A stretch of 64,000 nt of DNA from Thermoproteota archaeon (GCA_013153895.1 JAADDN010000168.1:17049-81048); one strand, 5' to 3'; shown: positions 21,848 through 58,517, counted from the stretch's first letter. Notes: generated by a model from the sequence alone, not told the origin. Numbers and translations: made by a program.

Positions 21848-21880
21848 GGTTTATGTATTTTTGGCAGGTACATTAGGGAG
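21848..21880 (+). repeat. Iteron-like module, copy 3 (more diverged)
   Basis: GGTTTATGTATTTTTGGCAGGTACATTAGGGAG. The first 15 nt are identical to 21083-21097. Confidence 0.6.
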
Positions 21881-34219: not shown

Positions 34220-34966
34220 ATGTCTCTCAGAGAGGATAGAGATCAGAGAGATCCTCAACGTGCTGAGAGAGAGTTTGAGAGGATGCTTGAGATGGCTAGG
34301 ATAGGTAGGAAGATAATGATAGTATTAGTAATATTCCAGGGAATATATGTAATATGTCAGCTATTTCATATAAATATTTACCAGCTCTTCACCCTGGCAA
34401 GACATGTAAACATTATAAGGATCATAAGAGAGAACAAGTGGCTTCAGCCATATATAGATTTCAGCCTATGGCTGCTGATGATCATTGACCTAGCAATATG
34501 TAATCGAGCTTCAATATTCGAGAAGATGAGTCCAAGAACAGTCTTCCCAATCATAGTTATCGGTCTCTTCCTGTCAATGCTCTCAATGATGTATAGTATC
34601 ACTCCGATGAATCTGATCCTCTTCATAATATATCTAGTCTCGCTAATATATCTGCTGTCTGGGAAGGTAAGCATAGTAGAGCTCCATAGGACAGCTACAG
34701 TTGAGAGGAGGAGATCAGTTCTTAAGAGTCCAGAAACTGTACTTGAGCTCTCTTATCCTGCGTGTATAGCTTATAGTGAGGAGAACCGCAAGTATCATTC
34801 CAGTAGTTCCGAGACAGGTAGAGGTTATGGCATATATCCCATCGCTGATTATGGCAGTGAGAATAAACATGGCAGAGACATAGTATACTATGGCTATGAT
34901 TATTCTAGCACAGGTAACAATCTCAAAACTGTTAAGAATTGGGAGAATAGTATACCACCATCTTAA
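34220..34966 (+). CDS. Multi-pass membrane protein whose 3' end overlaps the convergent gene
   Basis: ATG with CATAAATAGG about 30 nt upstream. Four hydrophobic segments. The last 84 codons or so overlap 34715-35140(-) and have atypical S/G/Y-rich composition. Confidence 0.55.
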   Translation: MSLREDRDQRDPQRAEREFERMLEMARIGRKIMIVLVIFQGIYVICQLFHINIYQLFTLARHVNIIRIIRENKWLQPYIDFSLWLLMIIDLAICNRASIFEKMSPRTVFPIIVIGLFLSMLSMMYSITPMNLILFIIYLVSLIYLLSGKVSIVELHRTATVERRRSVLKSPETVLELSYPACIAYSEENRKYHSSSSETGRGYGIYPIADYGSENKHGRDIVYYGYDYSSTGNNLKTVKNWENSIPPS

Positions 34967-35140
34967 CCATATTAATACGAACATTATTATAAACGTTAGA
35001 ACAGTGAAAACATATGCTATAGGGTTACCATATATGAAAAATATTCCACTACTCATAGAGAGAAGAGAAGTAAGAAAAGCGAGAACACTCATAAAATTCA
35101 TAACCTCGCGCCTGAGCTCCAGATAGCTCTGGCTAACCAT
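34715..35140 (-). CDS. 4-TM membrane protein with a YSFWTLKN C-terminus
   Basis: ATG start and four clear hydrophobic helices. The tail resembles the RYWxxRE family. Confidence 0.7.
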   Translation of the reverse strand: MVSQSYLELRREVMNFMSVLAFLTSLLSMSSGIFFIYGNPIAYVFTVLTFIIMFVLIWLRWWYTILPILNSFEIVTCARIIIAIVYYVSAMFILTAIISDGIYAITSTCLGTTGMILAVLLTISYTRRIRELKYSFWTLKN

Positions 35141-35167: not shown

Positions 35168-35497
35168 ATGATTAACCTAGTCATCCTCATATCCATCATC
35201 TTCACATATATTCTAATCCACATAATGATACATGAGTTCTCACTATATTATCCGAACATTCTTAGAAAGATTGGACTCTTCCTCTCACTTATAAGCGATA
35301 TAGTTTTTCTCTACTCACCAATGATTGGACTAGGAATATATCTTATAGTAGTTGCAATATGTTTAAACTGTTTTGAAACATGGTTAAAATATTTAATATT
35401 GATAAAGCTTGGATACCTAGTATGTCCACTTTTCCTGCTCGTCCCTACAGTCCTAATATACGTAATTATATACCTAGCAGAAAGATGTTCAGGATAG
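35168..35497 (+). CDS. 3-TM membrane protein
   Basis: ATG start, hydrophobic throughout. Confidence 0.7.
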   Translation: MINLVILISIIFTYILIHIMIHEFSLYYPNILRKIGLFLSLISDIVFLYSPMIGLGIYLIVVAICLNCFETWLKYLILIKLGYLVCPLFLLVPTVLIYVIIYLAERCSG

Positions 35498-36316: not shown

Positions 36317-36724
36317 ATGTCACATACAGCGGAGATAAGAGTACGAGTAAAAATAACCAACATTTACGCACTGAAAGAAGCAATAAAAGCCGCATTCAGA
36401 GCAATACTACACCAGAATGTTGAAGTAAGAGAGGGAGGATACGTAACAGATCTATCAGGAAGAAAAACAAAAGTAGACCTAGTAGTACCATTTAAAGGAC
36501 CATTGAAAGCAAGAAACATAGGATTTAAAATAGAGAACGGTGAGCTAAAGATGGTATATGAAAGCATGATGATACCATATACAAAGGCGGAACAGCTTCT
36601 AAACGCTGTAAGAGACGCCTATACTGCATATATTGCTATGCAGGCACTGAAAAACATGGGATATAATGTAAAAGTAGACTATAGAAACGAGAGCTTTGAA
36701 ATAGTAGCAGAGTCGGTGATATGA
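36317..36724 (+). CDS. DUF1257 (Ycf35-like) family protein
   Basis: MSHTAEIRVRVKITNIYALKEAIKAA..., VREGGYVTDLSGRKTKVDLVV, NIGFKIENGELKMVYES and AYTAYIAMQALKNMGYNV follow the DUF1257 pattern as I recall it. Confidence 0.65.
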   Translation: MSHTAEIRVRVKITNIYALKEAIKAAFRAILHQNVEVREGGYVTDLSGRKTKVDLVVPFKGPLKARNIGFKIENGELKMVYESMMIPYTKAEQLLNAVRDAYTAYIAMQALKNMGYNVKVDYRNESFEIVAESVI

Positions 36725-36933
36725 TGACCAGGAGAATAATTATCAGAATAAAGGATGGTAAAGTAGACATGGACTTCCAGGGATTTATAGGACCATCATG
36801 TTTCAGAGAGCATGATAAGATCAGGCAGATACTGGAGAAGATGGGTATAAAATATGAGGACATTAAGACAAGAGAGAAACCAGAAGCAAAAATGACAGTA
36901 GGAGAGAAACATGACAGTTCAGTTAATTATTAG
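36721..36933 (+). CDS. DUF2997 family small protein
   Basis: ATGA coupling to the DUF1257 gene. RIIIRIKDGKVDMDFQGFIGPSCFREHDKIRQILEKMG fits the I.I..DG.V....G..G.sC......L pattern. Confidence 0.65.
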   Translation: MMTRRIIIRIKDGKVDMDFQGFIGPSCFREHDKIRQILEKMGIKYEDIKTREKPEAKMTVGEKHDSSVNY

Positions 36934-39996: not shown

Positions 39997-40314
39997 ATGT
40001 ATAGTAAGGTCCTAGCTGAGAAGTCTAGTGTTAGTAGTCTAGTTGTTCCTGATCAGATATTTATGTTTGGTAGTTATATATGTGGTAGAGTGTTTATAAA
40101 TGATGAAGTAGACTTAGAGACATATCAGAGAATAGAGGATGAGATGTATGGTATAGCTGTCCTAGAATCGGACAAGGAGCCTGAGAACAGGGTAAAGGTG
40201 AGAAGCATTGTAACATGTATACGAGGCATAGGTGAGAGAAATCTGAATGATCTAGCTAGGAGTATAGTGATAGCTTACATAAATCTGAGAGATATGTATA
40301 GGATGAGAAGATGA
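39997..40314 (+). CDS. Hypothetical 105-aa protein
   Basis: ATG start. Its stop overlaps the next start (ATGA). Confidence 0.7.
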   Translation: MYSKVLAEKSSVSSLVVPDQIFMFGSYICGRVFINDEVDLETYQRIEDEMYGIAVLESDKEPENRVKVRSIVTCIRGIGERNLNDLARSIVIAYINLRDMYRMRR

Positions 40315-41336
40315 GCCTATCACAGTCTCTTCTAAGGATTGAGGAGGAGCTTAGGAATCTTGCAACAGAGCTGCAGGAGGCTAGGACTGGGAGAGATACA
40401 TATAGTGGGGACAGGTTTCTAGAGGTCTATCATAAGCTTGTAGATGTTAATCTGAAGCTTGAGAGCATCTATAGGACGTGTCTAGAACGTTCAGAGACGG
40501 AGAAGCCGTTACAGCTCTTCTGTAGGTTGATATATAATATATATCTAGGATTGAATGATCTTATACATGACATGAATAAAAATTGTAATGTATCTAATGG
40601 AGTATTTACATGTCTTAATATTAATGTTGAGAAGATTAGAAGAGAACTATGTAACAATGTTCTAGAGCTGACTGGAAGAAAATGCGGTAACCTGATACTC
40701 TATGATACGAGCCTTCAGCCACCAGCAATTATAGATGGCATAGCTAACTGTGTACATGTACTAGCTGAGGAGCTGATGAAGATGGAGACCTGGAGAAGAG
40801 TAGGAAGATGCTACTTGAATGAGAACTCTAGCAGAAGCATTGTAGAGCTCTGTGAGAAGTGGAGCGAGTATATTAACAGGTTCGATCCATATTATATGAG
40901 TGAGGATATTGAGAACGTTTTCGGATATGGTATAGATGGTAAAGCATATTTTAGAGTAGGATCAGCAGCGGGACATGCAGCAAATATAGATTTTAACAGT
41001 GGGACATTCACATATTATGATAATGATCTTAATGTTGTATCTCTAGTACATACATATGTTGAAAAGTATATGAATGGTGCATGCATGTTTAATAGAGAGA
41101 ACAGTGAATTAAAATGTACTATACCGAATATTGATAAGAAGATAGATGATATAGCATATCTCCTAGCATCTGTAACCAGCATGGATATTAGACTAGCAAA
41201 CGCTAATGTAGATGCTAAGAAGCTTATACCGATAAAGATAGCAAAGTCAACATATAACTATGATAGAGAGATAGCATTAGAGAAAGGTCTCGAGAACACT
41301 TCTAGAACATATATAACAGTTCTAGGAGGAGAGTAG
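40311..41336 (+). CDS. Family-A protein, copy 1 (paralog of 43566-44567)
   Basis: Shares TGRxCGNLxLY..S.Q.PAxIDGxANCxHVxAEEL, RVGRC and RVGSxxGHAxxIDF with copy 2. Confidence 0.85.
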   Translation: MSLSQSLLRIEEELRNLATELQEARTGRDTYSGDRFLEVYHKLVDVNLKLESIYRTCLERSETEKPLQLFCRLIYNIYLGLNDLIHDMNKNCNVSNGVFTCLNINVEKIRRELCNNVLELTGRKCGNLILYDTSLQPPAIIDGIANCVHVLAEELMKMETWRRVGRCYLNENSSRSIVELCEKWSEYINRFDPYYMSEDIENVFGYGIDGKAYFRVGSAAGHAANIDFNSGTFTYYDNDLNVVSLVHTYVEKYMNGACMFNRENSELKCTIPNIDKKIDDIAYLLASVTSMDIRLANANVDAKKLIPIKIAKSTYNYDREIALEKGLENTSRTYITVLGGE

Positions 41337-41337
41337 T

Positions 41338-42243
41338 ATGGAGCCGATACATGTTAAAGAAATTATAAACAGGATAGCTGAGACCGTTAGAGACCTCGCT
41401 AGAGTAAAAACATGTTTAACATCTAATAATAGGAGAGAAGAAGTATCATGCCTATTAGACCTATATGAGAGAAGAGATAGACTGCTCGCACTTGTAGATG
41501 ATTTGAAGAAGCTTGCAGTAGCAGCACGGTACTTATATGGTCCAGAGTTCGGATACGTTCTCTACTATGTTAATAATATGGCTAGAGATGTTGACAAGAT
41601 AGTGAAGACGTTGGACTATGAGATAAATAGCTCAACTATAAGAAAGATGCCTACGAGACTTATAGCCCATGAGATAGGTGATGAATTGCAGGAACTAGTT
41701 ATTAACATGGTAGAGCTGGCAGACGTGTTGAGAAGACTTGGAAATGAGGATCTCTACATCTATGGTACATGTATCATACGTGGAGAACCTAGAACAGATC
41801 TGAAAACACGGTACATATGTGCAGGAGGACCTACACCACTTATAGTTGACAGAGATAAGATAGTTACATATGGAATAGACTTCCAGGGAAAAGAATATGC
41901 AGCAGAGCTTAGAGACCATGAGATAAAGCTAGAGTTTGAACTGCCTGTACTAGAGACTGGGAGAGAGTATTACCATGAGATACTTCCAAAAGATATGAAA
42001 TGTGAATCAACTATAGATGAGGAAGCTGGAACGCTAGTATATACATGTAGAGGAACAGTGCCAGATATGAAGGAGATTCTGAAAAATATTGAGCTAGCAA
42101 GAGAGCTTGAATCAATATCTCCACCACATGTAGAGAACATTCTTAGAGACACAATGCTTAGAGGAATGGAGATAGATAAGAACATGCCACTAGACATGAA
42201 CTGGAGAAGAGCACTCAAGCTGTCACTACCATTACCAGGGTAG
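41338..42243 (+). CDS. Family-B protein, copy 1 (paralog of 44564-45418)
   Basis: NEDLYIYGTCIIRGEP compares with NEDLHIYSGCIVRGRP. It holds the same position, right after the family-A gene. Confidence 0.85.
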   Translation: MEPIHVKEIINRIAETVRDLARVKTCLTSNNRREEVSCLLDLYERRDRLLALVDDLKKLAVAARYLYGPEFGYVLYYVNNMARDVDKIVKTLDYEINSSTIRKMPTRLIAHEIGDELQELVINMVELADVLRRLGNEDLYIYGTCIIRGEPRTDLKTRYICAGGPTPLIVDRDKIVTYGIDFQGKEYAAELRDHEIKLEFELPVLETGREYYHEILPKDMKCESTIDEEAGTLVYTCRGTVPDMKEILKNIELARELESISPPHVENILRDTMLRGMEIDKNMPLDMNWRRALKLSLPLPG

Positions 42244-42278: not shown

Positions 42279-43100
42279 ATGAAGAGACCAGTACAGATAC
42301 TTGAGAAACTGTTAGAAAAATATTACAGGTATAGAGAATCTAGACATTGTGAAGAACTTTTCAACAATGTTGAAATATGTATAGAAATAATAGGAGAGCG
42401 GAGAGGAGAGAGAACACTGATAGATAGGGAACATGTTAATGGTAGAGAGATAATATTAAACTATAATGAGCAGATATATACATTAAACATATCTGTTAGA
42501 CATGGAGAAGAGAAGGAAAGCAGAATAATAACAGTTAGAACACTAGTAGCATCAGCACCAGTAAGACTAGAAGGAGACAGGATAATAGATGTAGAGAGTA
42601 ATGGGGAACATATTATCATTTCTCTCTGTGATGATTTTGACAGCGCGGTACTCTCAATAGTTCACTCATTATTATTAAAATGTAAGGATATTGAGGTAAA
42701 GTTAAAATATTATGAGAATCTTATAAACACTATTACAGATCTAGTATATGGTGAAATTGTTAAGAAGATTAATAATAATATTATTGATAGGAGTATAAAG
42801 ATTGGAGACATGGTGATAAGGTTCATATTTACATGTGATGGAGATAGGATACATCTTACAGTGTTTGCGGATGGTAGAGCTATATATGATGAGGATAGTG
42901 TAGATAATCTTAGAGATATGATACGTAGAGCAGTTCATAGATTATTCACATCTTACTATGTTGATGATCTTATCAGCATACTATCCGTGCTGGATCGTGT
43001 GATGTCTATTGAATATGTTAGTAATAGGAGCAGGAGGCTATTGAGAACGCTCTCTAGAATATGTTCATCTATTATCTCCATGTTTTCAGGGAAAATCTAA
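42279..43100 (+). CDS. Hypothetical protein
   Basis: ATG start, 273 aa. Confidence 0.8.
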   Translation: MKRPVQILEKLLEKYYRYRESRHCEELFNNVEICIEIIGERRGERTLIDREHVNGREIILNYNEQIYTLNISVRHGEEKESRIITVRTLVASAPVRLEGDRIIDVESNGEHIIISLCDDFDSAVLSIVHSLLLKCKDIEVKLKYYENLINTITDLVYGEIVKKINNNIIDRSIKIGDMVIRFIFTCDGDRIHLTVFADGRAIYDEDSVDNLRDMIRRAVHRLFTSYYVDDLISILSVLDRVMSIEYVSNRSRRLLRTLSRICSSIISMFSGKI

Positions 43101-43130: not shown

Positions 43131-43535
43131 ATGGGTATAATAAGCAGGTTAATTGATTTTGGCATACTTATCGATCTAGTATATCTCTGCTATATCTATA
43201 GTCAGATAAGTACATTAGCCTTTCTGCTACATGTTGTACTTCTCTTTGCTTTTTCTGCATATCTTGCAATAGATATATCCAGGAAGCATCTTGTCTCTCC
43301 AGTATTCTACTATATTTATGTTCTTACTATAGGTATAGCATGTGGATGTGCTCTTTTTCTAGCTGTTGTTGATCTATATATATCAGTGTATAGTTTCCCG
43401 TTTTATCCTCTTATTCTATCAATGTTGTATATATCTGTTGCTGGTATACTTATAAAAAGCATTTTCAATCTTAAAGTGCTCTCAACCATAATGAGCGAGA
43501 GAAGGAGAAGGAGATACTGGGATCTTAGGGAATAG
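43131..43535 (+). CDS. Multi-pass membrane protein with an RRRRRYWDLRE C-terminus
   Basis: Hydrophobic helices followed by a terminal basic cluster and the YW motif. Confidence 0.8.
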   Translation: MGIISRLIDFGILIDLVYLCYIYSQISTLAFLLHVVLLFAFSAYLAIDISRKHLVSPVFYYIYVLTIGIACGCALFLAVVDLYISVYSFPFYPLILSMLYISVAGILIKSIFNLKVLSTIMSERRRRRYWDLRE

Positions 43536-43565
43536 CTTATCATTTTTCTACCTGCTATATCAAGC

Positions 43566-44567
43566 ATGGAGCTATCTAACATAGTTAGCGAGATGATGAG
43601 GATTGAGGAGGAGCTTAGGAATCTTGCAACAGAGCTGCAGAAGTCCAGGATCGAGAGGAACGAGTATGTTTATGATATTCAGAATGTTAAGAAGGTTTTA
43701 AATAATATATGTGAGAAGCTTAACAAGATTAGTGAGGAGCCGTGTGCGGATATGATATCTAACATATTGAAAAATATGGTAGATCTTGCATATGATTATA
43801 TTTCTACTATATGTAATAGGGAGGATGGTTATTATAAATGCTCCAACATTAGTACAAGAGAATTTAGAAAGTTTATAGAAGAATTTGAGAAAGTTACGGG
43901 TAGAACATGTGGGAACCTTCTACTCTATATGGACTCGGTCCAGCTTCCTGCTGTTATAGATGGACTTGCTAACTGTATACATGTTGCCGCTGAGGAGCTA
44001 GCTAAAATTAACAAACATGGTAGGAGAGTTGGTAGATGCATCATAGTTGGCTATGCTGATCCAAGGATCATAGAGCTATGTAAAAAGTGGACGGATCTTG
44101 TAGAGAAGTATCATAATATGGGTATCTACCTGGAGGAGGATTATAATAGTCTTATAGGTATTGGAAGAGGACTCTCTCTTGATCTACGTGTAGGTTCCTC
44201 TCCTGGACATGCAATGAAGATAGATTTTAAGAATGGTACACTGAAATATTATGATTCTGATATGAATGTTATAGATACTGTACGAGTATTCATAGAGAAG
44301 CATCTAGATGGGTCATGTATGTATGATTATGCGAACCAGGAGCTGACATGTAGGTTCGATCCAGGTGCTGATAAGGTATCTGACAAGCTTGCATGGATTG
44401 CTGCTAATGTTACAAGTCTAGATGTTTACCTTGATGATGAGATTCCCGAATATATGAAGGATAGAGTATCCTCAGCTGCCCGTTCTGTACAGTTGAACTA
44501 TGAGGAGGCTAGTATGAGTATTAGAGAGATGATGGATAAAGCTAGTAGAATGGTGATGCTAATATGA
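43566..44567 (+). CDS. Family-A protein, copy 2
   Basis: See 40311-41336. Contains the 42-nt stretch identical to copy 1. Confidence 0.85.
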   Translation: MELSNIVSEMMRIEEELRNLATELQKSRIERNEYVYDIQNVKKVLNNICEKLNKISEEPCADMISNILKNMVDLAYDYISTICNREDGYYKCSNISTREFRKFIEEFEKVTGRTCGNLLLYMDSVQLPAVIDGLANCIHVAAEELAKINKHGRRVGRCIIVGYADPRIIELCKKWTDLVEKYHNMGIYLEEDYNSLIGIGRGLSLDLRVGSSPGHAMKIDFKNGTLKYYDSDMNVIDTVRVFIEKHLDGSCMYDYANQELTCRFDPGADKVSDKLAWIAANVTSLDVYLDDEIPEYMKDRVSSAARSVQLNYEEASMSIREMMDKASRMVMLI

Positions 44568-45418
44568 GGCTTGTAGATTATCTTAGACAGATTAGGGAGA
44601 AGCTTGAACATATATATGAAACATGTATGAGAGATGTTGAGTCATGTATATTTGAGTATTTTACACTTGCACTTGAGCTGCCTGCGCTGGAAAAGTTGAA
44701 GAATAGTGCATGGTCAATGTATGCTGCTGAGAAGAGAAGGGAGGATAAGTATCTGTACGAGCTATTCAACTCGCTATATACTGGACATCTCCCATCTAGA
44801 TATGCGAGAGATATCTCTTCTAAAGCATCTGCAGAGGCTCTGGCAGAGACTATTAGAGAGATTGTAGAAGATGTTAAGGAACTTGAGAAATATTATGAGA
44901 ATGAGGATCTTCACATCTATTCTGGATGTATAGTGAGGGGTAGACCAGGACCAGAGAAGCTATCTATGATAGGTGCAACATGTGACACATATGGAGGATA
45001 CTATAGTAATAATAGGCTAGTAGCTGCTAATAATGATATAGCTCTCGAGCTAGATACTGAGAATCCTAGAGAGGCAAGATGCTTCTCACTTCATCCTGAG
45101 TATAAAATGTGTGAGAGACTGCTAGTATCTTCAATATCTGACTGTTATAGCAGGAATGGTGAGGTATACTGTACATCTCCTCCATATCACAATCTTGGAT
45201 ATATTTATAGGGCTCTAGATAAGGTGGAAGAGTTTAGGACATTATTATCATCTCTTGTACATACTACACTATATGGTATATATAGTAGAGGATTTGTAGA
45301 GAAGCTGGCAATGGCAGATGCATATACTAGGAAGGAGTTTGAGACTCCTCTAGTAGTTAACATGCGCAGAGAGATCGATAACGCTGCGAGCAGGGTCTTT
45401 GGAGAAAAAAGAGAATAG
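44564..45418 (+). CDS. Family-B protein, copy 2
   Basis: ATGA coupling to the family-A gene. Paralog of 41338-42243. Confidence 0.85.
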   Translation: MRLVDYLRQIREKLEHIYETCMRDVESCIFEYFTLALELPALEKLKNSAWSMYAAEKRREDKYLYELFNSLYTGHLPSRYARDISSKASAEALAETIREIVEDVKELEKYYENEDLHIYSGCIVRGRPGPEKLSMIGATCDTYGGYYSNNRLVAANNDIALELDTENPREARCFSLHPEYKMCERLLVSSISDCYSRNGEVYCTSPPYHNLGYIYRALDKVEEFRTLLSSLVHTTLYGIYSRGFVEKLAMADAYTRKEFETPLVVNMRREIDNAASRVFGEKRE

Positions 45419-45440
45419 GTAGGGTAGAGAAGTCTCTCAC

Positions 45441-46904
45441 ATGTTCGAGCTTGATGGAAAGAGGGTAAGACCTGAACGTAGACGGATGTTTAAAACTCAT
45501 CTTAAAGCGTTAATCCTTATTCTTATTGTTATGATCTGTATATCAATGTTCTTATTATATCATTATGGTATAACAATGACATTATCAAACGTTGATCCCT
45601 GGGTAGTACGCAGCGTGCTATCAGGTGAGAACACTCCTGTATGGGTATACACGTGGATAGGGGCTAAACTGCCGAAGGACTTTATAGTATGGAGGTTCGA
45701 TACTTTTGAGATAGCTGTAGGATATGTACATAGTTTATCAACATTGGAGTATCTTTCAAAACATAGCTGGTATGTTGGAGGACTAGACTACTATATTATC
45801 GCGCCTCCTAGAATGCCAGTATACTTTCCTAGGAGCGATGCATTGAATGCTTCTAGAGTGAACTATCTCGTAAAGATTCATAATCCATATATGGTATATA
45901 ACGGTACTAATGTTACCATAGCTATTCTAGATACAGGAATAGACTATCTTCTCCCAGTATTCTACACTAACTGTCATGTATCTACAAAATATAGTCATAT
46001 AATTGCAATGGTGAGCTTTGTGGATGGTGGCAGAGTATATATATGGAGTAGAAAGTACTGGCTAGAGGGAAAGAACATGTCATTAACAGAATTATATAGT
46101 TGGGAACAGTCAATATATTCTGTATACGGTGTATATCCATTCATGGACATTGTAGGACATGGAACCGCTGTAGCATCAGTAATCGTTGGACAGCCATGTT
46201 ACTATCATGGTTTCAGCGGTGTAGCTCCAGGTGCTAGGATAGTAATGTTGAAGGTCTTTCCAGACAAGTCAACTACAAGTATCATAATACTGATAGAGGC
46301 ATTGCACTGGCTCTACTTTCACTATAAGGAGTATCATATAAAGATAGTTAGCATGAGCTTGAACGCTTTCACACCAAGCTTCGGAACTTTTTCAGATCCA
46401 ATAAACATTATTCTTCAACATCTAGCAGAGAAGGGGCTCATAATCCTAGTAGCCTCAGGAAACGAGGGAAACTTTCCAGGAAGCCTAGACTCTATAGGAA
46501 ATGCTCCTAATGTATATCTTGTAGGTGCTTGGGATCCTATCCACTGGAAGATCGCGTACTTCACCTCTATGCCTACAGTTGGGCAGCATCCTATTAACTT
46601 TCTAGGAGATGGTTACATGGTGTGGAGTGTTGTTCCTAATAGTAGCATGATATTTAGAGCGGTAAGCGAGTATGTTCCATATCTGATAATGGATAAGAAA
46701 CATGGAATGGTCCTTCTCTCAGGAACATCTCTTGCAACTCCTGCTGTTGCTGGAGTAGTAGCAGACTGGTATCAGTGGTATCTAGAACATTATCATCGTG
46801 CTTCTGCTCCTGAGACACTTGTCAGGATAATATGCTCGAGAGGGTACATTACTGGGAGAATACCGCTAATAGTTACATGTGGTCTTGTGAGAGCGCCTAA
46901 ATAG
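45441..46904 (+). CDS. Membrane-anchored subtilisin-like serine protease (S8)
   Basis: N-terminal TM LKALILILIVMICISMFLLY. Catalytic motifs AILDTGIDY (D), HGTAVASVI (H), ASGNEGN (N), SGTSLATPAVAGV (S). Confidence 0.9.
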   Translation: MFELDGKRVRPERRRMFKTHLKALILILIVMICISMFLLYHYGITMTLSNVDPWVVRSVLSGENTPVWVYTWIGAKLPKDFIVWRFDTFEIAVGYVHSLSTLEYLSKHSWYVGGLDYYIIAPPRMPVYFPRSDALNASRVNYLVKIHNPYMVYNGTNVTIAILDTGIDYLLPVFYTNCHVSTKYSHIIAMVSFVDGGRVYIWSRKYWLEGKNMSLTELYSWEQSIYSVYGVYPFMDIVGHGTAVASVIVGQPCYYHGFSGVAPGARIVMLKVFPDKSTTSIIILIEALHWLYFHYKEYHIKIVSMSLNAFTPSFGTFSDPINIILQHLAEKGLIILVASGNEGNFPGSLDSIGNAPNVYLVGAWDPIHWKIAYFTSMPTVGQHPINFLGDGYMVWSVVPNSSMIFRAVSEYVPYLIMDKKHGMVLLSGTSLATPAVAGVVADWYQWYLEHYHRASAPETLVRIICSRGYITGRIPLIVTCGLVRAPK

Positions 46905-46924
46905 GTCCTATAGATATTATACCT

Positions 46925-47710
46925 ATGCTAATGATAGACTACTCTACTAGGATAGTAACCATTTCATCACCATTCTACCAGTTCTTAACATATCATAATC
47001 ACGTACCTGTAGAGAAGGGTGATCACTTGATCATGGTGCCAGCATTCTCACAGTACCGTGCCTCATATAGTGAAGGATTCTACTATCTTCTCGACATGGA
47101 GGAGCTTAAAATAATGAAGGTTGGAGTAGGGATAAGAGAGGTCTTGAATGATCATGATATTATTAGCCTTATGAGAAGGATAGTTAGGCTTCTAGGAATA
47201 GATGTAAGATATGGTGAGAACTATATCTATCTTGGTAGGCGGGCAAGAGTATTTAAATGTCCATTAATGTCAGTATATGCACTAGTTTTCGGCACTTTCA
47301 GACTAGTAGTAGAGCCGTTAGATGTGACTGATAGGATATCTCTTCTAGATCTTCCAGTTCTTGTTCAGTATGGTCCATATATGGTATATATTGATGAGGG
47401 ACGTATAATACCTATACCAGATAACTCAAATATTTACCATATAGTTAAGATAGGTAAGATAGATATCAACTATATTGGTCTTGATTCAACATTTAGAGTA
47501 TATAATCACTGTAGGCTGATACGTTCTCATGATGTGATTATTCTACGTACATGGAGGAGAGATATTGTTAAGCTATTGTCAGGTTATGTATGTAGGATAG
47601 TGAATATAGGTGATCAATATTTCCTATATTTTAACAAGGATATAGATGTTGAACGGATAGTACAGTCAGCATCTGCAGGACATATTGCTGATAAGATTGA
47701 CCTGTTATAA
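46925..47710 (+). CDS. Hypothetical protein
   Basis: ATG start, 261 aa. Confidence 0.8.
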   Translation: MLMIDYSTRIVTISSPFYQFLTYHNHVPVEKGDHLIMVPAFSQYRASYSEGFYYLLDMEELKIMKVGVGIREVLNDHDIISLMRRIVRLLGIDVRYGENYIYLGRRARVFKCPLMSVYALVFGTFRLVVEPLDVTDRISLLDLPVLVQYGPYMVYIDEGRIIPIPDNSNIYHIVKIGKIDINYIGLDSTFRVYNHCRLIRSHDVIILRTWRRDIVKLLSGYVCRIVNIGDQYFLYFNKDIDVERIVQSASAGHIADKIDLL

Positions 47711-47715
47711 TAATG

Positions 47716-47723
47716 TTTAAATT
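47716..47723 (+). promoter_or_regulatory. TATA box
   Basis: TTTAAATT centred about 25 nt upstream of the ATG at 47745. Confidence 0.5.
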
Positions 47724-47744
47724 TTTATTACAGGGAAGATACCT

Positions 47745-48032
47745 ATGGCAGAGGAGGCAGGAAAGGTAGAGATCACGGAATCAATAATATCTAAGACGCT
47801 GAGAATAATTAGAACACCAACATTTATAGCTGGTGTGGCGTTCATGCTACTTGGACTAGTATGCATGTTTGCGTTCCCAGCAATGTTTGGTCCTTTCGGT
47901 GTGCTACTTGGTATACTATGTATGACATTTCTAGAAGGTATTGCAATAGTGTTCTATGTGCTCACTGCTAAATATGTTGGCACGGTATTCAGGAGAAAGA
48001 GAACTTACAAGTATTGGGATAGTAGAGAATAA
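47745..48032 (+). CDS. 2-TM membrane protein with an RRKRTYKYWDSRE C-terminus
   Basis: Two hydrophobic helices followed by the terminal motif. Confidence 0.8.
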   Translation: MAEEAGKVEITESIISKTLRIIRTPTFIAGVAFMLLGLVCMFAFPAMFGPFGVLLGILCMTFLEGIAIVFYVLTAKYVGTVFRRKRTYKYWDSRE

Positions 48033-48085: not shown

Positions 48086-49795
48086 ATGGACTGGGTTCTC
48101 AGACTATTAGAAGAATGTTACATATATAGGTACTCTACTATAGGTATAGTAGAGACAGGAGATCTGCGTCATAGTATTATTATACTCTTAAAGAAGTGTG
48201 TAAACATTAGAGATGCATTCAAGGATAGTGATGTTCCACTTCCTGAGAGAGTGATCTTCTACTCTGGTACGCAGCTATATGAGCCATATGTTGAGGAGGG
48301 GAGGATAAAGCTTAGAAAGATAAGTCTTGGGGAAGAGAACATATTTCAGAGTGGTGATGATAATATTGTTACACCATTACAGGCACTGTCATATTATAGG
48401 AAGCTTGTATATGAGGAAGGTAGGATACTTATGATATTTTCACTCTATGGCTTTCCTAGAGACAGCATAGTGACTCTCTATCCAATGATCTCTGAGATAA
48501 TTGCTGACCCTAGCCTACAGTATCAGCGTTCTGGATCTATGCTCATATTTATTGTTGATGATAGGGAGAAGCTTGCTCCCTTCATTGGGAACAGTATCCA
48601 TGTTCATGATGAGGTAAGTGATGATGAGATTAGAAGTATAGTTACTAGGTTTAGAGCGAAAATGTCTAAATATGGTTATAGTATAGATGTCTCTGATGAT
48701 AAGATAATTGAATTGTTAAGAGGGTTAGAGTATAAAGATGTTGAGAACATTATTGCAAAGATTGGACAGAAAATGAAGAGTCTTAAACCTGAAGAAGCCA
48801 AAAAGCTCAATATTATCCATGAGATTATAAGTGAGCGTAATAGGATAATCATACAGCAGCTACCGTGTCTAGAACCTATCGAGCCGAAACATGGGTTTGA
48901 AGCAGTGGGAGGATATAGCGATGTTAAGGAGATTGTTCGGAGAACATTTATCAATATATGGAAGCATAGGGACCTGGCTAGAAGTCTAGGAGCAGAGCTT
49001 CCTAAAGGAATGCTCCTCTTCGGTATACGTGGCACGGGTAAGACATGGTTTGTAAAGTGTATGGCTAAGGAGCTTGATCTGCCAATGTATAGGTTCATTA
49101 TAGAGAGCGTGAAGAGTAAATGGTATGGTGAGAGCGAGAGAGCTCTTAGACATGTTTTCAAGATGTTGAGGAAGATACAGCCAGTAATACTCTTCATAGA
49201 TGAGATAGATAAACTGATGACAGAGAGAGGAGGACAGCAGGAGCATGAGGTTTCTAGAGCTCTGAAGAATATTATTCTAGAGGAGATGAGTGAGAAGGAT
49301 GATATAATTCTTATATGTACAACAAACTTTCCTGAACAGCTTGACAAGGCTTTCCTACGTGCTGGACGTATCGATATTAAGCTACCATTCCTATTGCCAG
49401 ATTATGATGCTAGGAGACAGATCCTTGAGATACATACGAGAGTAGTAAGAAAGGTTCCTCTTGACAGGGATGTAAACCTAGACGAGCTAGCTAGAAAGAC
49501 CAGTGGATGGACTGGTGCAGAGATCGAGCAGCTTGTTAAGGAAGCTATAATATATGCGTTAGATGAGGCTGTTAGACGCGGTATAAAGAGGATGAAGGTA
49601 GGTATGAGACATTTCGAGGAGGCGTATAATAATATTGTTGTTGACCGTAAGACACGTGCAGCAGAGCTTGACAGGTTTGTAAACATTGCAAAATCATTGA
49701 CAAGCCATAGAGAGGTGATCAGATATGTAGAGAAGCAGAAGAACATGGTTACAAGCGAGATATCTATAGTAGAGGACAAGACAATATTCCTATAA
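48086..49795 (+). CDS. Classical-clade AAA+ ATPase (CDC48/FtsH/Ycf46-like module) with a unique 270-aa N-terminal region
   Basis: Walker A GIRGTGKT, GESE, Walker B ILFIDEIDKL, sensor-1 CTTN, arginine fingers LRAGRID, TGAEIEQL. Confidence 0.9.
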   Translation: MDWVLRLLEECYIYRYSTIGIVETGDLRHSIIILLKKCVNIRDAFKDSDVPLPERVIFYSGTQLYEPYVEEGRIKLRKISLGEENIFQSGDDNIVTPLQALSYYRKLVYEEGRILMIFSLYGFPRDSIVTLYPMISEIIADPSLQYQRSGSMLIFIVDDREKLAPFIGNSIHVHDEVSDDEIRSIVTRFRAKMSKYGYSIDVSDDKIIELLRGLEYKDVENIIAKIGQKMKSLKPEEAKKLNIIHEIISERNRIIIQQLPCLEPIEPKHGFEAVGGYSDVKEIVRRTFINIWKHRDLARSLGAELPKGMLLFGIRGTGKTWFVKCMAKELDLPMYRFIIESVKSKWYGESERALRHVFKMLRKIQPVILFIDEIDKLMTERGGQQEHEVSRALKNIILEEMSEKDDIILICTTNFPEQLDKAFLRAGRIDIKLPFLLPDYDARRQILEIHTRVVRKVPLDRDVNLDELARKTSGWTGAEIEQLVKEAIIYALDEAVRRGIKRMKVGMRHFEEAYNNIVVDRKTRAAELDRFVNIAKSLTSHREVIRYVEKQKNMVTSEISIVEDKTIFL

Positions 49796-53296: not shown

Positions 53297-54358
53297 GTGT
53301 CTAATCTATATAGTTACATATTGAGAGAGTATTCTGGACATGGTAGAGACAGACCGCCTACACTACCATATGAGCCTAGGACTCCTCCAGGTTTTCTAGG
53401 ACTGTATGGTCGTTATGCATATGTTCATGATATCTATCCAACTATCTATCAGATACTTGGTGTCAATATTCTCCATGATCATTATAGTGGCAGGAGAGTT
53501 CTTAGGTTCAGACTTGGGATAATAGAGGTATGGGCTTACCATCCTGAGACTAAGGATGCTATACCTCTCTCGGTTTTCGGTGTGCCTCTCAGCTACGTTC
53601 CACAGGTTATGAATAGGTTGAGAGAGGAGGGTTATAGGTTAATGACTATTGAGCAGGGTTTAGCATATTATACTGTTCCTGAGGAATATGTATACAATAT
53701 TGAACATGTTACTGAGGGTATGAGTGATGTAGTTATAATAGATCCGCATGGTCTCATGTATAAGGCAGGGGCTGTACTGCCTCCTCATGAACAGCTTAAC
53801 CGTCTAATGGAGACCGAGGAGGAGCTTCATAGGCTGCGTCTTCTCCTGACTAACCTATCTATACAGCATAGGAAGGTTCTAGGAGACTACTCTGTTCTTA
53901 GAGAGACTGTTGATAGAATGAGCAGTCTAGTAGAGACGCTCTATGCAGAGCTTAGAAACGCATTGTCTAGACTTTCAAGTCTTGAATCAGAGCTTCATAA
54001 GCTTGAGGAGGAGATTAGACTACGCTCACGTGAGGCGCTGCTCTACAGGACAATGTATAGCTATAAGGAGCTTGAGAGCATGAGTCTCACAGGTGAGATG
54101 TCTACATCATTGAAAGAGCTTAGAACAGAGATATCAACATTAATGGATATTGTACGAACATTGAGAGAAGATGTAGAGAGAATAAAGGGAGAGGTAGAGA
54201 GAACACTTACAACACCACCATCACCACATGTAGGACAGGGACAGGCAGGTACACAGGCTCCTGCCCCTGCCAGGGTCCCTGCTGCATCTCTCTTTTATAG
54301 ATCTGGTAGATACTTTAATATTGATGCCAGGAGAGAAGAAGAGGAAGGAGGAAAGTGA
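53297..54358 (+). CDS. Hypothetical protein with a coiled-coil and a Pro/Ala/Gly-rich tail
   Basis: GTG start with ATAATTATTAATC about 25 nt upstream. Long heptad region from ELHRLRLLL to VERIKGEVE. Confidence 0.7.
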   Translation: MSNLYSYILREYSGHGRDRPPTLPYEPRTPPGFLGLYGRYAYVHDIYPTIYQILGVNILHDHYSGRRVLRFRLGIIEVWAYHPETKDAIPLSVFGVPLSYVPQVMNRLREEGYRLMTIEQGLAYYTVPEEYVYNIEHVTEGMSDVVIIDPHGLMYKAGAVLPPHEQLNRLMETEEELHRLRLLLTNLSIQHRKVLGDYSVLRETVDRMSSLVETLYAELRNALSRLSSLESELHKLEEEIRLRSREALLYRTMYSYKELESMSLTGEMSTSLKELRTEISTLMDIVRTLREDVERIKGEVERTLTTPPSPHVGQGQAGTQAPAPARVPAASLFYRSGRYFNIDARREEEEGGK

Positions 54359-54977
54359 GGGATATTCTGGTCCTGGTATAGACTTATCATATCAATATGC
54401 TAGTAGTCTAGTCCAGAGATGTCTCAGTCTTCTCTCAAGTCTGGAGACTGGCAAGGTCATAGATGTCTCTACTATACTAGGAGAAGTGCGTATACTCCTC
54501 TCTAGGCTTAGATCTTCACTATTTATCTCTGATGTATATATTGGTAAGATGAGTGATACGAGGTTTGAATATATTATGAAGAAGCTTGAAGACCTTAACA
54601 ATAATATAAACATTGCACTGGAACACTTGGATAGAAAGGATATTCCATCACTTAGAGCAAAACTCTATGAGATAGATCGCGACTTATTACTATATTATCA
54701 AGCGCTCTCGCTTATAGGTAGACCAGCAGCGGCACGTAATGTAGACAGTGTGATTATAGGCATGGCAGAGCTCCCTGAGGAGACTGATAGAATGGTTCCA
54801 GAGTATGCTAAGCCTGTCCTAGCATATATACAGTCCAGGAAGAGGGTAACCATGAGAGAGCTTGTTAGAAGGTTTGGAAATGCTGTGATAGATATTTTAG
54901 AGGATCTTAAACGGCTAGGACTGATACGTTCTGGAGTAGATAAAAGGGGAGAGGTAATCTATCTCATACCCCAGTAA
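54324..54977 (+). CDS. Protein with a C-terminal winged-helix domain
   Basis: ATG one codon after the track TTG. VLAYIQSRKRVTMRELVRRFGNAVIDILEDLKRLGLIRSG. Confidence 0.7.
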   Translation: MPGEKKRKEESEGYSGPGIDLSYQYASSLVQRCLSLLSSLETGKVIDVSTILGEVRILLSRLRSSLFISDVYIGKMSDTRFEYIMKKLEDLNNNINIALEHLDRKDIPSLRAKLYEIDRDLLLYYQALSLIGRPAAARNVDSVIIGMAELPEETDRMVPEYAKPVLAYIQSRKRVTMRELVRRFGNAVIDILEDLKRLGLIRSGVDKRGEVIYLIPQ

Positions 54978-55330
54978 GCTCTTCCAAGCTTTCTTGCAAG
55001 AACCCTATTTATAGTCTCTGTCACTTTGTCTGGCATATTTATTGGGAGCTGTATCTCCTCTTCCATACTGTTCATAATACTGTTAAAAAGTTCCTCGACC
55101 TCGTTCCATACTCTATCAATCTTACGGTATATCCTGTCCATTATCCTGCTCATCTCCTCGAGCTGTATCTGCCTGAAAACCTCCTTCTTTATTTCCTCAA
55201 CAAGCTCCCTCTTCTCCTCAGGGCTCAGCTTCTTCAGCTTCTCTAGAAGCTCCCTATCCGTCGAGACTACTGTTACACGTGTATTACCATTCTTCTCTAC
55301 GATTTTTATTCCAAAAATGCTCGCATCCAT
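54959..55330 (-). CDS. Coiled-coil protein ending GRAYWGMR
   Basis: The track ORF starts at TTG 55372. I prefer the ATG at 55330 (MDASIFGIKIV...). Confidence 0.65.
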   Translation of the reverse strand: MDASIFGIKIVEKNGNTRVTVVSTDRELLEKLKKLSPEEKRELVEEIKKEVFRQIQLEEMSRIMDRIYRKIDRVWNEVEELFNSIMNSMEEEIQLPINMPDKVTETINRVLARKLGRAYWGMR

Positions 55331-55371
55331 ATATGAAACATCTTTTAACAGGAATATAATTATTTCCACCA

Positions 55372-55866
55372 ATGAGAACAGTAAGACTCATCTACCAGCA
55401 CACTACCATGTGCCCTTTCTGTGAATCAGCGAGCTATCTAATAGACATGTTTAAACGAGCAGGAATAGAAGTAGTAGAGGACATTCTAGACGCAGGAACA
55501 CGGAGACCAAGCATGAATATGGAAGTACTGAAAAGAAAGGGAATACCTGTAGGAGAAGGAACATGGGTACCATGCCTAATAGTAGAGTTCATAGAGAATG
55601 GAAAGACCGTGTATAGGCTAGTAATAAACATTGAAGAATATGTAGAATATGAAGGAAGGAAATATCCCTGCAGAATACCTTATACACATGCAGGAGCACT
55701 AGCAAGAGAGCTATTACAGACATATGGTAGAAACGCGATAGAGCTATTGGACAACATGTTTGGAGAAGACTGGAAGATAGGATTTCTCTGCTTGAGAAGA
55801 TATGAGGAGATTTTTAGAAAGATTATGAAAATAGTTTACAGCTGGGTCAGAGCTAGGAGAAGTTAA
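55372..55866 (+). CDS. Glutaredoxin/NrdH-like redoxin with a C-terminal extension
   Basis: VRLIYQHTTMCPFCESASYLIDMFKRAGIEV has the strand-CPxC-helix pattern. Confidence 0.6.
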   Translation: MRTVRLIYQHTTMCPFCESASYLIDMFKRAGIEVVEDILDAGTRRPSMNMEVLKRKGIPVGEGTWVPCLIVEFIENGKTVYRLVINIEEYVEYEGRKYPCRIPYTHAGALARELLQTYGRNAIELLDNMFGEDWKIGFLCLRRYEEIFRKIMKIVYSWVRARRS

Positions 55867-56530
55867 ACATTTTCCTGCTCTTTCTAGACATTATAGTACC
55901 TCTCTTAGCAACTATAGCTATAAGTATGAGCACTATAGCTACACCAAGTAGAATATATATGAACGGTATACCAAAGATGGCAACAGTCTTATAATTCACC
56001 TTAGCTGTTCCAGAACCATCAAATACTACTTCTCTACTAGATGAGATATACTTAACATCTCCACTTGTAGACACATTCTCAAGCTTATACATTCCAAACG
56101 GTGGAGAGTACGTAGCCTCTGGAAGCACCATACTTACAGGAGCATTGAAACATAGCTTCAGTGACTTATCTATTGTTAGACTGGTCTCAGTATTCTTGAG
56201 AAGCACGCCATGTATAGCTATGTTACTTGTAATGTTACCACAGTACGGTAGCTTAGATATATCTATTACAGTACTGTTAGCCTTAACCTCTACAACATAG
56301 AGTACACCGTTATATGTGAACGATATATTTACAGGATATGTAACAGGTATAGTCACGTTACCCTTCTCTATGCTTACAGTACCACACTTACCCTTCGCAC
56401 AGTAGTGCGCAGTCACATTTAGTAGCTTTGTCCCATATTTAAATGTTGCTTTCGTACATGCAGCATAGGCTGGGACTGTTATAGCTATTACAGCTATTAG
56501 GGACAGTAGAATCAGCAGACTTCTCCTCAT
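55853..56530 (-). CDS. Type I membrane glycoprotein
   Basis: Signal peptide MRRSLLILLSLIAVIAITVPAYA, several N-x-S/T sequons, C-terminal TM helix, and tail RKSRKMFNFS resembling the tail of 4803-7448. Confidence 0.8.
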   Translation of the reverse strand: MRRSLLILLSLIAVIAITVPAYAACTKATFKYGTKLLNVTAHYCAKGKCGTVSIEKGNVTIPVTYPVNISFTYNGVLYVVEVKANSTVIDISKLPYCGNITSNIAIHGVLLKNTETSLTIDKSLKLCFNAPVSMVLPEATYSPPFGMYKLENVSTSGDVKYISSSREVVFDGSGTAKVNYKTVAIFGIPFIYILLGVAIVLILIAIVAKRGTIMSRKSRKMFNFS

Positions 56531-56534
56531 AGTT

Positions 56535-57107
56535 TCACCTCTCCTTACTTTCTTCTAAAACTTTATTATCTTCAAACCTCCAGTACCTCATATATTTAGA
56601 AGCCATTATAGACGACGACTTTGTAGCCGCACCATGTTCTGAGTGAGATGATGTTCCTGTCTTTGTTTTTCTATGCATGTGTATGTAATATAATTCAAGA
56701 TTCTTCATCATTGCATAAATTATTGTAACAACCATGAATGCCACATCAGCTAGCAAAGCATAGTTCTGTGGGTAAGGTATCTTCCATGTAGTAAGTATCT
56801 GATAGAGCAGGTAGATACCGATAACAAGAAGTGCTCCACATATGATTACATCTCCTGCAAGGCTAGAAGGAGTAAAAGATATTGGTTTCTCTAGAGAACG
56901 CAGGTCATAATAGATGTCATACCCCACACGTACCAGACCACCAAAACATAGTATAAACAGTATTATCCACTTATAATCAAAAGCTGTCAACAGTTCAAAC
57001 ATTGATAGAGCCATACCATATATAGCTGCTAACAGTAGAGACACTAGTCCAAACATCTTCAACTCTACTGACATTATGCTCGACTTCTTTCCCATAGGTA
57101 CCTTCAT
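56535..57107 (-). CDS. Multi-pass membrane protein with a near-terminal KYMRYWRFED
   Basis: Hydrophobic helices followed by a soluble tail carrying the YW motif. Confidence 0.8.
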   Translation of the reverse strand: MKVPMGKKSSIMSVELKMFGLVSLLLAAIYGMALSMFELLTAFDYKWIILFILCFGGLVRVGYDIYYDLRSLEKPISFTPSSLAGDVIICGALLVIGIYLLYQILTTWKIPYPQNYALLADVAFMVVTIIYAMMKNLELYYIHMHRKTKTGTSSHSEHGAATKSSSIMASKYMRYWRFEDNKVLEESKER

Positions 57108-57147: not shown

Positions 57148-57597
57148 GTGAGCACTTTTCTGACATATGTAAAAGACTATCTTAACAAGCTTACTTTCAA
57201 CCTAAAGAACATTCCTGGAAGCGAGATATTTAACGATTTCATAACATCATGCATAACAACAGACCAGCAGCTTACAACAGTACGTAGAAGCGAGATAAAA
57301 CAGTTCTACCGTTGCATACGTAGGAACGTTGATCTAGGAAGCAGATTGTTCGATACTGCAGTATCATCATGCTTATCATCATGGTACAGGACACATGACT
57401 TCAACAAGTTCACAGCATGCGTACTTGACCGTGTTGGGAGGCACCCTATATCTAACATAGTTAAAATATGTGCAGAATCACTTCCAGAGGATGAGAAGCT
57501 TCCATACGCATTGACAATGTGTGTATATGGTGGTATAGAACTGTTTAACAGTGCAGTAAATAGACTATATAAGGACCTTAAGAAGATAGTCAAGTGA
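57148..57597 (+). CDS. Paralog of 10051-10515 (P0 family)
   Basis: GTG start. See the P0 motifs above. Confidence 0.7.
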   Translation: MSTFLTYVKDYLNKLTFNLKNIPGSEIFNDFITSCITTDQQLTTVRRSEIKQFYRCIRRNVDLGSRLFDTAVSSCLSSWYRTHDFNKFTACVLDRVGRHPISNIVKICAESLPEDEKLPYALTMCVYGGIELFNSAVNRLYKDLKKIVK

Positions 57598-58516: not shown

Positions 58517-58517
58517 C

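Follow-up and report, generated by a model that had tools for sequence, protein, structure and literature searches.

Classical-clade AAA+ ATPases are often recruited by short terminal peptides or by small membrane adaptors, as in the pairing of the MIT domain of Vps4 with MIM peptides, of the N-domain of p97 with VIM, VBM and SHP motifs, and of Pex1/6 with Pex15/26. Among other cytoplasmic tails, the Y-x-L motif of the alphavirus E2 protein docks into a pocket of the capsid protein, and the KKFF sequence of ERGIC-53 is the di-basic, di-aromatic tail of a eukaryotic type-I cargo receptor. Here we describe a recurrent C-terminal tail, built around an invariant Tyr-Trp (Y-W) pair, on otherwise unrelated proteins encoded in a 64,000-nucleotide stretch of DNA from a Thermoproteota archaeon (GCA_013153895.1 JAADDN010000168.1:17049-81048; hereafter the window). 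The window is part of the 90,945-bp contig Ga0072504_101352 (JGI metagenome 3300005095), of which it covers record positions 17,383-81,382, and this contig appears to represent a large mobile element or virus of archaea.

In function, the tail would most resemble the adaptor motifs of p97/Cdc48 or the assembly signals in the cytoplasmic tails of enveloped viruses. We think it probable that the tail is a docking tag common to six carriers and read by some common partner. A first-pass annotation of the window, which had proposed a new tail tag recognised by a common partner encoded here, appears in this respect to have been right in outline.

A Tyr-Trp tail on unrelated proteins

The seven C-terminal tails listed by the first-pass annotation are all present in the sequence exactly as described (coordinates are those of the window, and tails are written up to the C-terminus). 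The first carrier is a 134-aa membrane protein with four transmembrane (TM) helices (43131-43535, + strand), the cytoplasmic tail of which ends in SERRRRRYWDLRE (RRRRRYWDLRE, codons at approximately 43497-43532). A 95-aa membrane protein with two TM helices (47745-48032, +), encoded directly upstream of the gene for an AAA+ ATPase, ends in RRKRTYKYWDSRE, and a 96-aa membrane protein, also with two TM helices (60128-60418, +), has the sequence KYRKYWSYRE followed by a charged extension of nine residues (KYRKYWSYREDSEKRKRRR). On the opposite strand, a 186/190-aa membrane protein with four TM helices (56535-57107, -) carries SKYMRYWRFED and then NKVLEESKER (SKYMRYWRFEDNKVLEESKER), the motif sitting approximately 40 residues beyond the last TM helix, while an Rce1-like intramembrane protease of the CPBP family (57983-58555, -; JGI start at 58516) ends in RSNRYWTLRL. 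The sixth carrier is a soluble coiled-coil protein that has no TM segment and ends in RKLGRAYWGMR (54959-55372, -; probable start at 55330).

To follow the tail through evolution we used relatives recovered from other vent metagenomes, anchored on the AAA+ ATPase and on a protein encoded beside the 134-aa carrier, referred to here as the A protein. Lineage a is approximately 98% identical to the window; in lineage b the A protein and the AAA+ ATPase are 56% and 65% identical to those of the window, in lineage c the corresponding values are 38% and 43%, and a fourth lineage is represented by a single protein that is 39% identical to the 134-aa carrier. Orthologues without the tail had been named at the outset as an outcome that would speak against the motif; instead, the orthologues in each of the six families keep Y-W without exception, and TM bodies, linkers, neighbouring residues and codons diverge around it. 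Orthologues of the 134-aa protein end in RRRRRYWELRE (lineage b), KRKTKYWELKE (lineage c) and GKRRRRYWRFED (RRRRYWRFED; fourth lineage). Those of the 95-aa protein end in RRRRVLKYWSSR (lineage b; L017:4046-4321) and YRRRNKYWHVM (lineage c; L016:1899-2150), both again upstream of the AAA+ gene, and in this family K-Y-W falls within only 14 invariant columns at 24% identity. The remaining four families have orthologues in lineage b. That of the 96-aa protein (L018:1625-1996, -) has KYRRYWSFRED and then a differing end, RSDS (KYRRYWSFREDRSDS); that of the CPBP protease (L018:3254-3808) ends in RRNRYWTFRE; that of the 186/190-aa protein (P0125, 47% identity) has the tail SKYSRYWRFEEDANNKVLEESERVR (SKYSRYWRFEED...), the linker before the motif having diverged; and that of the soluble protein (L018:6455-6829) ends in RRLGSRYYWGVK (SRYYWGVK). 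Synonymous codon differences (AGA/AGG/CGT, TAC/TAT, GAA/GAG and CTT/TTA/CTA) flank the invariant Tyr-Trp, which indicates that selection acts on the peptide and not on the DNA; on this ground a DNA-level explanation of the tail was rejected.

Contig-wide counts, which cover 78.8 kb of the contig and 114 open reading frames (ORFs), point in the same direction. An Arg or Lys followed by Tyr-Trp ([RK]YW) occurs within the last 20 residues of 5 of the 114 ORFs, against 0.14 expected, a number reached in none of 2000 within-protein shuffles, and YW occurs within the last eight residues of four, against 0.44 expected (1 of 2000 shuffles). The ORF set of the window contains 19 YW dipeptides, six of them in the last 16 residues of a protein. 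When every dipeptide was scanned at every C-terminal offset without bias, YW followed by four residues ranked fourth (3 observed, 0.087 expected), with a p value of 1e-4 that alone would fail correction for 4400 tests. The YW counts by themselves are suggestive; conservation in the orthologues is the decisive support.

A similar frequency of the motif in shuffled or unrelated proteomes had likewise been named beforehand as evidence against it, and no such similarity was found in the shuffles or in three unrelated sets. In particular, [RK]YW was present in the last 20 residues of 1 of 406 unrelated ORFs, and the 60 kb examined of Acidianus tailed spindle virus (ATSV), with 19 TM-containing ORFs, held no YW tails and none of the Met-Phe tails described below. 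A scan of 185,579 species-representative genomes (596 Gb) for RRYWxxRE followed by a stop codon, covering only AGR arginine codons and this strict form of the motif, returned 57 hits, about the chance level; these were scattered in unrelated bacteria, nearly all were not in ORFs, only one fell in a long TM-containing ORF, and none of the 57 was from Thermoproteota. As judged from these sequences, the tail is specific to this element family.

The motif originally proposed, [KR]-Y-W-x-x-R-[ED], held in its first half, in that [RK]-Y-W is invariant, and had to be relaxed in its second, since x-x-R-[ED] varies (SSR, HVM, GMR or TLRL at the C-terminus) and is common but not required. As revised, the predicted motif consists of a basic cluster and an invariant Y-W after Arg or Lys (after Ala or Tyr in the soluble family), usually with three to four residues to the end. 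Across the carriers Y-W lies 3-14 residues from the C-terminus, two families having 9-14 residues after the motif, and the residues that follow are partly conserved as x-L/F-R/K-E.

The expectation that the tail comes after a basic cluster beyond the last TM helix, and so faces the cytoplasm, was borne out by a simple membrane-protein analysis based on the positive-inside rule. The membrane carriers have an even number of TM helices, their Lys and Arg residues are most numerous in the C-terminal loop (5-11 residues) and absent from the odd-numbered loops, and Y-W stands 14-40 residues past the last TM helix, beyond the basic cluster. The TM bodies also proved non-homologous, as supposed: all-against-all blastp of the carriers gave only weak matches spanning the last TM helix and the tail; hhalign of the profiles of the 134-aa and 95-aa families gave an alignment limited to the final 19 residues; and a self-search of the contig proteome found several paralogous pairs, none of them with a tail protein (E < 1e-4). 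The tail is therefore predicted to face the cytoplasm, to be independent of the protein body and to be selected at the protein level. A motif that is body-independent and cytoplasmic, and that is under purifying selection on unrelated carriers, has the signature of a docking motif, and the fact that one carrier is soluble argues for a binding tag over a feature of membrane topology.

The seventh tail belongs to a possible variant carrier, a 141-aa protein with four TM helices (34715-35140, -) that ends in RIRELKYSFWTLKN (KYSFWTLKN), where FWTLKN resembles the YWTLRL of the CPBP protease. Its ORF overlaps a convergent membrane-protein-like ORF (34220-34966, +) by 252 nt, and within the overlap both frames have coding scores (0.26 and 0.21 log-odds per codon, against -0.40 for typical antisense frames), which leaves it ambiguous. 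No orthologue of the 141-aa protein was found among the recovered relatives, and its variant tail is a possible candidate, as yet unconfirmed.

Two further observations concern gene ends of this kind. The NKVLEES extension after Y-W in the 186/190-aa protein (56535-56575, -) is encoded by AATAAAGTTTTAGA, DNA that is identical in lineage b. The next gene begins at 56530, after a gap of 4 nt between the two genes, and AATAAAGTTTTAGA, approximately 20-35 nt ahead of this start, may be an embedded TATA-like promoter. In addition, the lineage b orthologue (L012:1-207) of a soluble 105-aa protein (39997-40314) has the tail-like end RRRIWRRE, whereas the protein of the window ends in MYRMRR, a difference that may be due to chance or to a tail-like end having been gained or lost.

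A candidate reader and the known tail systems

As reader of the tail we tentatively put forward the AAA+ ATPase encoded at 48086-49795 (+), the leading candidate for a partner, although at rather low confidence. The choice was made because the gene for the 95-aa tail protein lies directly upstream of the AAA+ gene in three lineages, and because of the precedents for recruitment of AAA+ ATPases outlined above, together with the finding that CdvB of Sulfolobus undergoes PAN-dependent degradation driven by C-terminal sequence determinants (PMC12909875). The ATPase has one classical AAA domain with its lid (Pfam AAA, E = 8.6e-32, and AAA_lid_3) and an unassigned N-region of approximately 290 aa. 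In its orthologues P0005 (65% identity) and P0006 (43%) the gene always directly follows the gene for the 95-aa protein. Both genes belong to a trio, the first gene of which encodes a 261-aa protein (46925-47710, +), with orthologues in the same position at L017:3298-4005 and L016:947-1849; the trio is kept in lineages a, b and c, and the genes downstream of it differ in lineage c. The 261-aa protein matched no family above threshold in Pfam, PHROGs or NCBIfam, and its possible identity, with that of the 95-aa protein, to ATSV B262/E272, which are encoded upstream of the ATSV AAA+ genes, was rejected at an hhalign probability below 1%.

The model that we propose has four parts. The C-terminus [RK]n-Y-W-x(3-4) would serve as a short linear motif for docking, present on no fewer than six proteins without homology to one another (the soluble coiled-coil protein and five membrane proteins, all polytopic); the AAA+ ATPase would bind these tails through its N-terminal region of approximately 290 aa; the 95-aa tail protein may be the membrane anchor or adaptor of the ATPase; and the other tailed proteins may be recruited clients, destined for remodelling, extraction or assembly.

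Several points weigh against the ATPase as reader, beginning with the fact that its binding to the tails is proposed from sequence and gene order. Its N-region has no recognisable peptide-binding domain, in that it gave no Pfam match and no MIT hit, and a PDB sequence search with residues 1-285 returned noise only. An AlphaFold2 (AF2) model built from a three-sequence alignment reached a predicted local distance difference test score (pLDDT) of 62, the N-region being of low confidence, of mixed alpha/beta content and too poor to inspect. ATSV has homologous AAA+ ATPases, yet it has no YW-tailed proteins in the 60 kb examined, and of the six carriers a single one is linked to the ATPase by synteny. 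The 9-14 residues that follow the motif in two families imply that the free C-terminal carboxylate is not part of recognition in every case. Finally, the comparison draws on three or four lineages, all of them metagenomic.

Other conserved neighbours were considered in the same way. The A protein (333 aa) and the B protein (284 aa) are encoded together at 43566-45418 (+) and adjoin the gene for the 134-aa tail protein, an arrangement shared by lineages a, b and c, and a second, paralogous pair is encoded at 40311-42243 (A versus A' 41% identity, B versus B' 27%). Numerous Cys and His residues of the A protein are invariant. For the fairly confident AF2 model of this protein (pLDDT 80.7) Foldseek found no match in PDB or BFVD (best E 0.13, TM-score below 0.3), a PDB sequence search with the A-protein profile gave noise only, and the A, B, 273-aa, coiled-coil and other proteins had nothing above threshold in Pfam, PHROGs or NCBIfam. 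A membrane-anchored subtilase (Peptidase_S8, Pfam E = 7.9e-28; 45441-46904, +) is a conserved member of the module and adjoins it in lineages b and c. The product of 54321-54977, with a helical N-part and a C-terminal winged helix, was entertained as a CdvB-like reader of C-terminal peptides, a role that is unsupported: it gave a weak match to the DDRGK1 winged helix (E = 0.015) and no Snf7 or CdvB match in family scans.

The comparison that comes nearest is with the VBM, VIM and SHP motifs of p97/Cdc48 partners (Hrd1, gp78) and with Pex15/Pex26, in which short cytosolic motifs, often at or near the C-termini of unrelated membrane proteins, recruit a classical-clade AAA+ ATPase. Like ERRRRRYWDLRE, the VBM combines many arginines with hydrophobic residues, and in the window the ATPase gene has that of a small membrane protein as its neighbour. 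However, the ATPase of the window has a single AAA domain, and the invariant core of the tail is Y-W and not the VBM or VIM consensus. The Cdc48 N-domain families PF02359 and PF02933, which are present in cellular CDC48 homologues, are absent from the Pfam hits of the window ATPase (AAA and lid only). The tails of alphavirus E2 and ERGIC-53 are similarly short, basic and cytoplasmic, with a critical aromatic residue or pair near the end; they too occur on several membrane proteins that have one cytoplasmic reader (putative in our case). There is no homology, and particle formation by this element, known from its genes alone, is hypothetical. We know of no COPI or COPII in archaea.

Neither of the two analogies drawn by the first-pass annotation survives as a class assignment. 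Archaeosortase and exosortase systems (PGF-CTERM, PEP-CTERM) also rely on a recurrent C-terminal module, in which a signature motif is combined with a TM helix and basic residues and which numerous unrelated proteins within a genome carry, but the order of the elements is reversed: their signals run motif, TM helix and basic cluster at the extreme end, whereas here TM helix and basic cluster are followed by the motif, which is last and cytoplasmic. Their carriers have a signal peptide and a single C-terminal TM helix, whereas YW carriers have two to four or more TM helices or none; the archaeosortase-type architecture occurs here only in the surface proteins of the Met-Phe class. No archaeosortase or exosortase was among the Pfam hits of the scanned proteins or in the precomputed contig annotations, the sole match being the CPBP/Rce1-like protein. 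The second analogy was to ESCRT-III and Vps4, a system that is present in Thermoproteota and in which a C-terminal peptide of ESCRT-III recruits an AAA+ ATPase. MIM1 has the form (D/E)xxLxxRLxxL(K/R) and MIM2 is proline-rich; the YW tail, having neither the Leu heptad nor Pro, fits neither, its carriers are not ESCRT-III proteins, and, as noted, Pfam and PDB sequence searches found no MIT domain in the N-region of the ATPase.

Two further signals share features of position. As in CAAX proteins processed by Rce1, a hydrophobic determinant is followed by three (sometimes four) end residues, and an Rce1-like protease is encoded in the element; however, YW tails have no Cys at -4 or anywhere else, two families have long extensions, and cleavage here is hypothetical. 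The HbYX signature, in which an AAA ATPase terminates in hydrophobic-Tyr-X, is not matched, since none of the carriers is an ATPase and Y-W is found 3-14 residues before the end. On these comparisons we assign the tail to the C-terminal short linear docking or sorting motifs, as a predicted class that is new in this element family and set apart from archaeosortase signals, MIM, CAAX and HbYX.

A second tail class and the rival explanations

The element has a second class of C-terminal tail, in which type-I surface proteins end in a TM helix, a basic cluster, Met-Phe (M-F) and three residues. In the unbiased scan no other C-terminal dipeptide of the element gave as strong a signal as M-F with exactly three residues after it (6 observed, 0.28 expected, p = 5e-7). 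This ending is found on an 881-aa type-I surface protein (4803-7448, -; QKRRKMFKQT) and on a second such protein, of 225 aa, which has both a signal peptide and a C-terminal TM helix (55853-56530, -; SRKSRKMFNFS) and the lineage b orthologue of which (L018:5267-5941) ends in SRSRRQMFKLSS and keeps M-F (MFKLSS). A 2298-aa surface protein adjoining the 881-aa protein (-2133 to 4763 in window coordinates, its C-terminus left of the window; RRRRKQMFKLE) and a 124-aa surface protein (-4477 to -4103, left of the window; RRRRMFKLD) have similar ends, and the anchor modules of the four surface proteins look alike. The other two are tandem soluble Csx3-like proteins (22998-23309 and 23351-23641, -; Pfam Cas_csx3, E = 1.5e-8 and 3.4e-13), which end in IRPMFYSD and RGQMFKLE and adjoin a P-loop protein (23667-24305); we infer that this pair are candidate anti-CRISPR proteins of the ring-nuclease type directed against type III systems. 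A further M-F ending, that of 42279-43100 (MFSGKI), is not conserved in lineage b and was discounted as chance. Orthologue data for the M-F class are thin. The predicted YW and M-F tails have the same architecture, a basic run, a hydrophobic or aromatic pair and a short end, which strengthens the idea of a C-terminal code.

The M-F tails bear most directly on the main rival explanation, namely that the tail is a signal for incorporation into a virion or envelope, binding a core, matrix or nucleoprotein component where assembly takes place, so that membrane proteins, spikes and some soluble cargo are packaged together; the docking of alphavirus E2 into the capsid protein would be a parallel. 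We regard this as possible, if somewhat doubtful. Most carriers are small polytopic membrane proteins clustered at 43-60 kb; the parallel tail on the large type-I surface proteins, and the same end on the two Csx3-like proteins, which would be sensible as packaged anti-defence cargo, are explained better by incorporation than by a model in which the AAA+ ATPase is the reader; and the AAA+ ATPase and a 70-aa protein are held in common with a large tailed spindle virus. On the other side, Pfam, PHROGs and NCBIfam scans of the contig and blastp against ATSV turned up neither a capsid or matrix protein nor any other virion component, and the viral nature of the element is itself putative. Incorporation and reading by the AAA+ ATPase are compatible with one another.

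The two classes might also form a private two-code system of C-terminal addresses, although we think this unlikely. Here, the YW code would mark small polytopic membrane proteins and the coiled-coil protein, and the M-F code the type-I surface proteins and the Csx3-like anti-defence proteins; element-encoded machinery, with the AAA+ ATPase and partners as readers and possibly with trimming by the CPBP protease, would sort cargo, membrane-bound and soluble alike, into a virion or vesicle.

Trimming alone has also to be weighed. Rce1 removes the -AAX residues after prenyl-Cys, and the tail could be a processing site at which the Rce1-like CPBP protease clips the last three to four residues after YW or M-F. 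The gene for this protease stands among those of the other carriers, and the enzyme, which has intact catalytic motifs (EEFIFR, WVIAH and HMINN, corresponding to EExxxR, xxxH and HxxxN), is conserved in lineage b (L018); most carriers have exactly three to four residues after a hydrophobic pair, as six proteins have exactly three after M-F; and the tails are cytoplasmic, the side from which Rce1 substrates enter. We nonetheless consider clipping decidedly improbable. The tails contain no Cys that could be prenylated, the motif is followed by 9-14 residues in two families, the protease is one of the tailed proteins, and the residues after Y-W are partly conserved, which would be unexpected in a discarded peptide. 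Moreover, the Pfam match (PF02517, E = 1.1e-4) scores 22.8 bits against a gathering cutoff of 22.4, barely above threshold, and conservation of the protease is established for lineage b and not for lineage c. We know of no established physiological substrates of archaeal CPBP proteases.

A generic property of membrane proteins, in which a positive-inside cluster and interfacial aromatic residues lie at the lipid headgroups, or in which basic tails bind DNA non-specifically, is in our judgement just as improbable a source of the tail. The density of Lys and Arg is indeed highest in the C-terminal loop of all membrane carriers, and Trp and Tyr are typical interfacial residues. However, Y-W comes after the basic cluster, away from the end of the last helix; Y-W is invariant and the basic residues vary; a soluble protein bears the tail; and the tail is missing from other membrane proteins of the element (60452-60940, 35168-35497 and 59899-60051) and from all 19 TM-containing ORFs of ATSV. 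Least tenable of all, and largely refuted by conservation of Y-W in every orthologue of six families amid synonymous change and by the shuffles and unrelated-sequence controls, is coincidental recurrence, or the translation of a conserved DNA element (for instance a promoter or terminator) where genes end, even with the uncorrected position-specific p value and the coincidence of the NKVLEES extension with the possible promoter AATAAAGTTTTAGA in its favour.

The element family and what the tail may offer

No ribosomal or other housekeeping genes were among the contig annotations examined, and for this reason we treat the contig as a large archaeal mobile element or virus, either a virus or a plasmid. 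According to family annotations and scans, it encodes proteins of information processing (a TFB-like protein, an XPD-type helicase, a DEAD-box helicase and a resolvase) and of nucleotide metabolism (a dCTP-deaminase-like protein, an anaerobic ribonucleotide reductase and a nucleotidyltransferase), together with the two Csx3-like proteins, the subtilase, the AAA+ ATPase and very large surface proteins; the majority of its proteins belong to no known family.

Its nearest described virus is ATSV, by way of the AAA+ ATPase (31.5% identity) and one 70-aa protein, the only matches of the contig ORFs to 60 kb of ATSV (blastp, E < 1e-3). The two resemble one another in size (71 kb for ATSV, which is Bicaudaviridae-like) and in a hyperthermophilic archaeal host; in contrast, the putative major coat protein of ATSV (D135 type) and its other conserved proteins have no homologue in the contig at the same threshold over the same 60 kb. 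The 70-aa protein (36721-36933, +, in the region 36317-36933) is similar to the ATSV ORF matching C70 (31% identity, E = 3e-4), and in ATSV a C70-type gene stands shortly downstream of an AAA+ ATPase gene; this match is a faint sign of common ancestry with the large tailed spindle viruses.

Closer relatives are few. A search of 20 kb for near-identical DNA among GenBank phages gave no match, IMG/VR yielded no relatives when scanned with the AAA+ ATPase, with the A protein or with an alignment of the latter, and neither did the reference genomes when scanned with that alignment. A single-sequence search of 1.84 billion representative proteins found the element family in only three clusters at 50% identity. 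The assembly IMG 3300005095 is one of two (the other being 3300005096) from a study of deep-sea hydrothermal-vent sulfide chimneys (PMC7329443). The element family is rare and uncultivated, and is known only from metagenomes of deep-sea vent chimneys.

Two features of the DNA itself deserve mention. A region at approximately 18400-22100 seems non-coding: its GC and AT skew is extreme and switches, its ORFs are all short and rich in Cys, Phe, Leu and Val, and it includes several imperfect tandem repeats of 20 nt. This region could be an origin or have a regulatory role. A block of four or five small genes is present as an inverted duplication (7499-10515, -, versus 57148-57597, +, and 62897-63953, +) that extends to approximately 65124, right of the window; the paralogue pairs are 24-32% identical, with gene order kept and strands opposite.

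This is a metagenome-only element of an uncultivated host, and the partner of its tails is a proposed one, which limits what can be drawn from them. The tails bear on how archaeal viruses and mobile elements gather their membrane proteins and on the role of their widespread Cdc48-like AAA+ ATPases. If YW and M-F tails were to form a two-code system, archaeal viruses would have their first described signal for sorting or packaging, and CAAX-like processing would be seen to proceed without prenylation; the presence of the M-F tail on both surface proteins and Csx3-like proteins suggests that membrane and soluble cargo may follow one addressing logic. Whichever partner reads it, a conserved and transferable tail on unrelated proteins offers a direct experimental handle on that partner and on the set of its clients.

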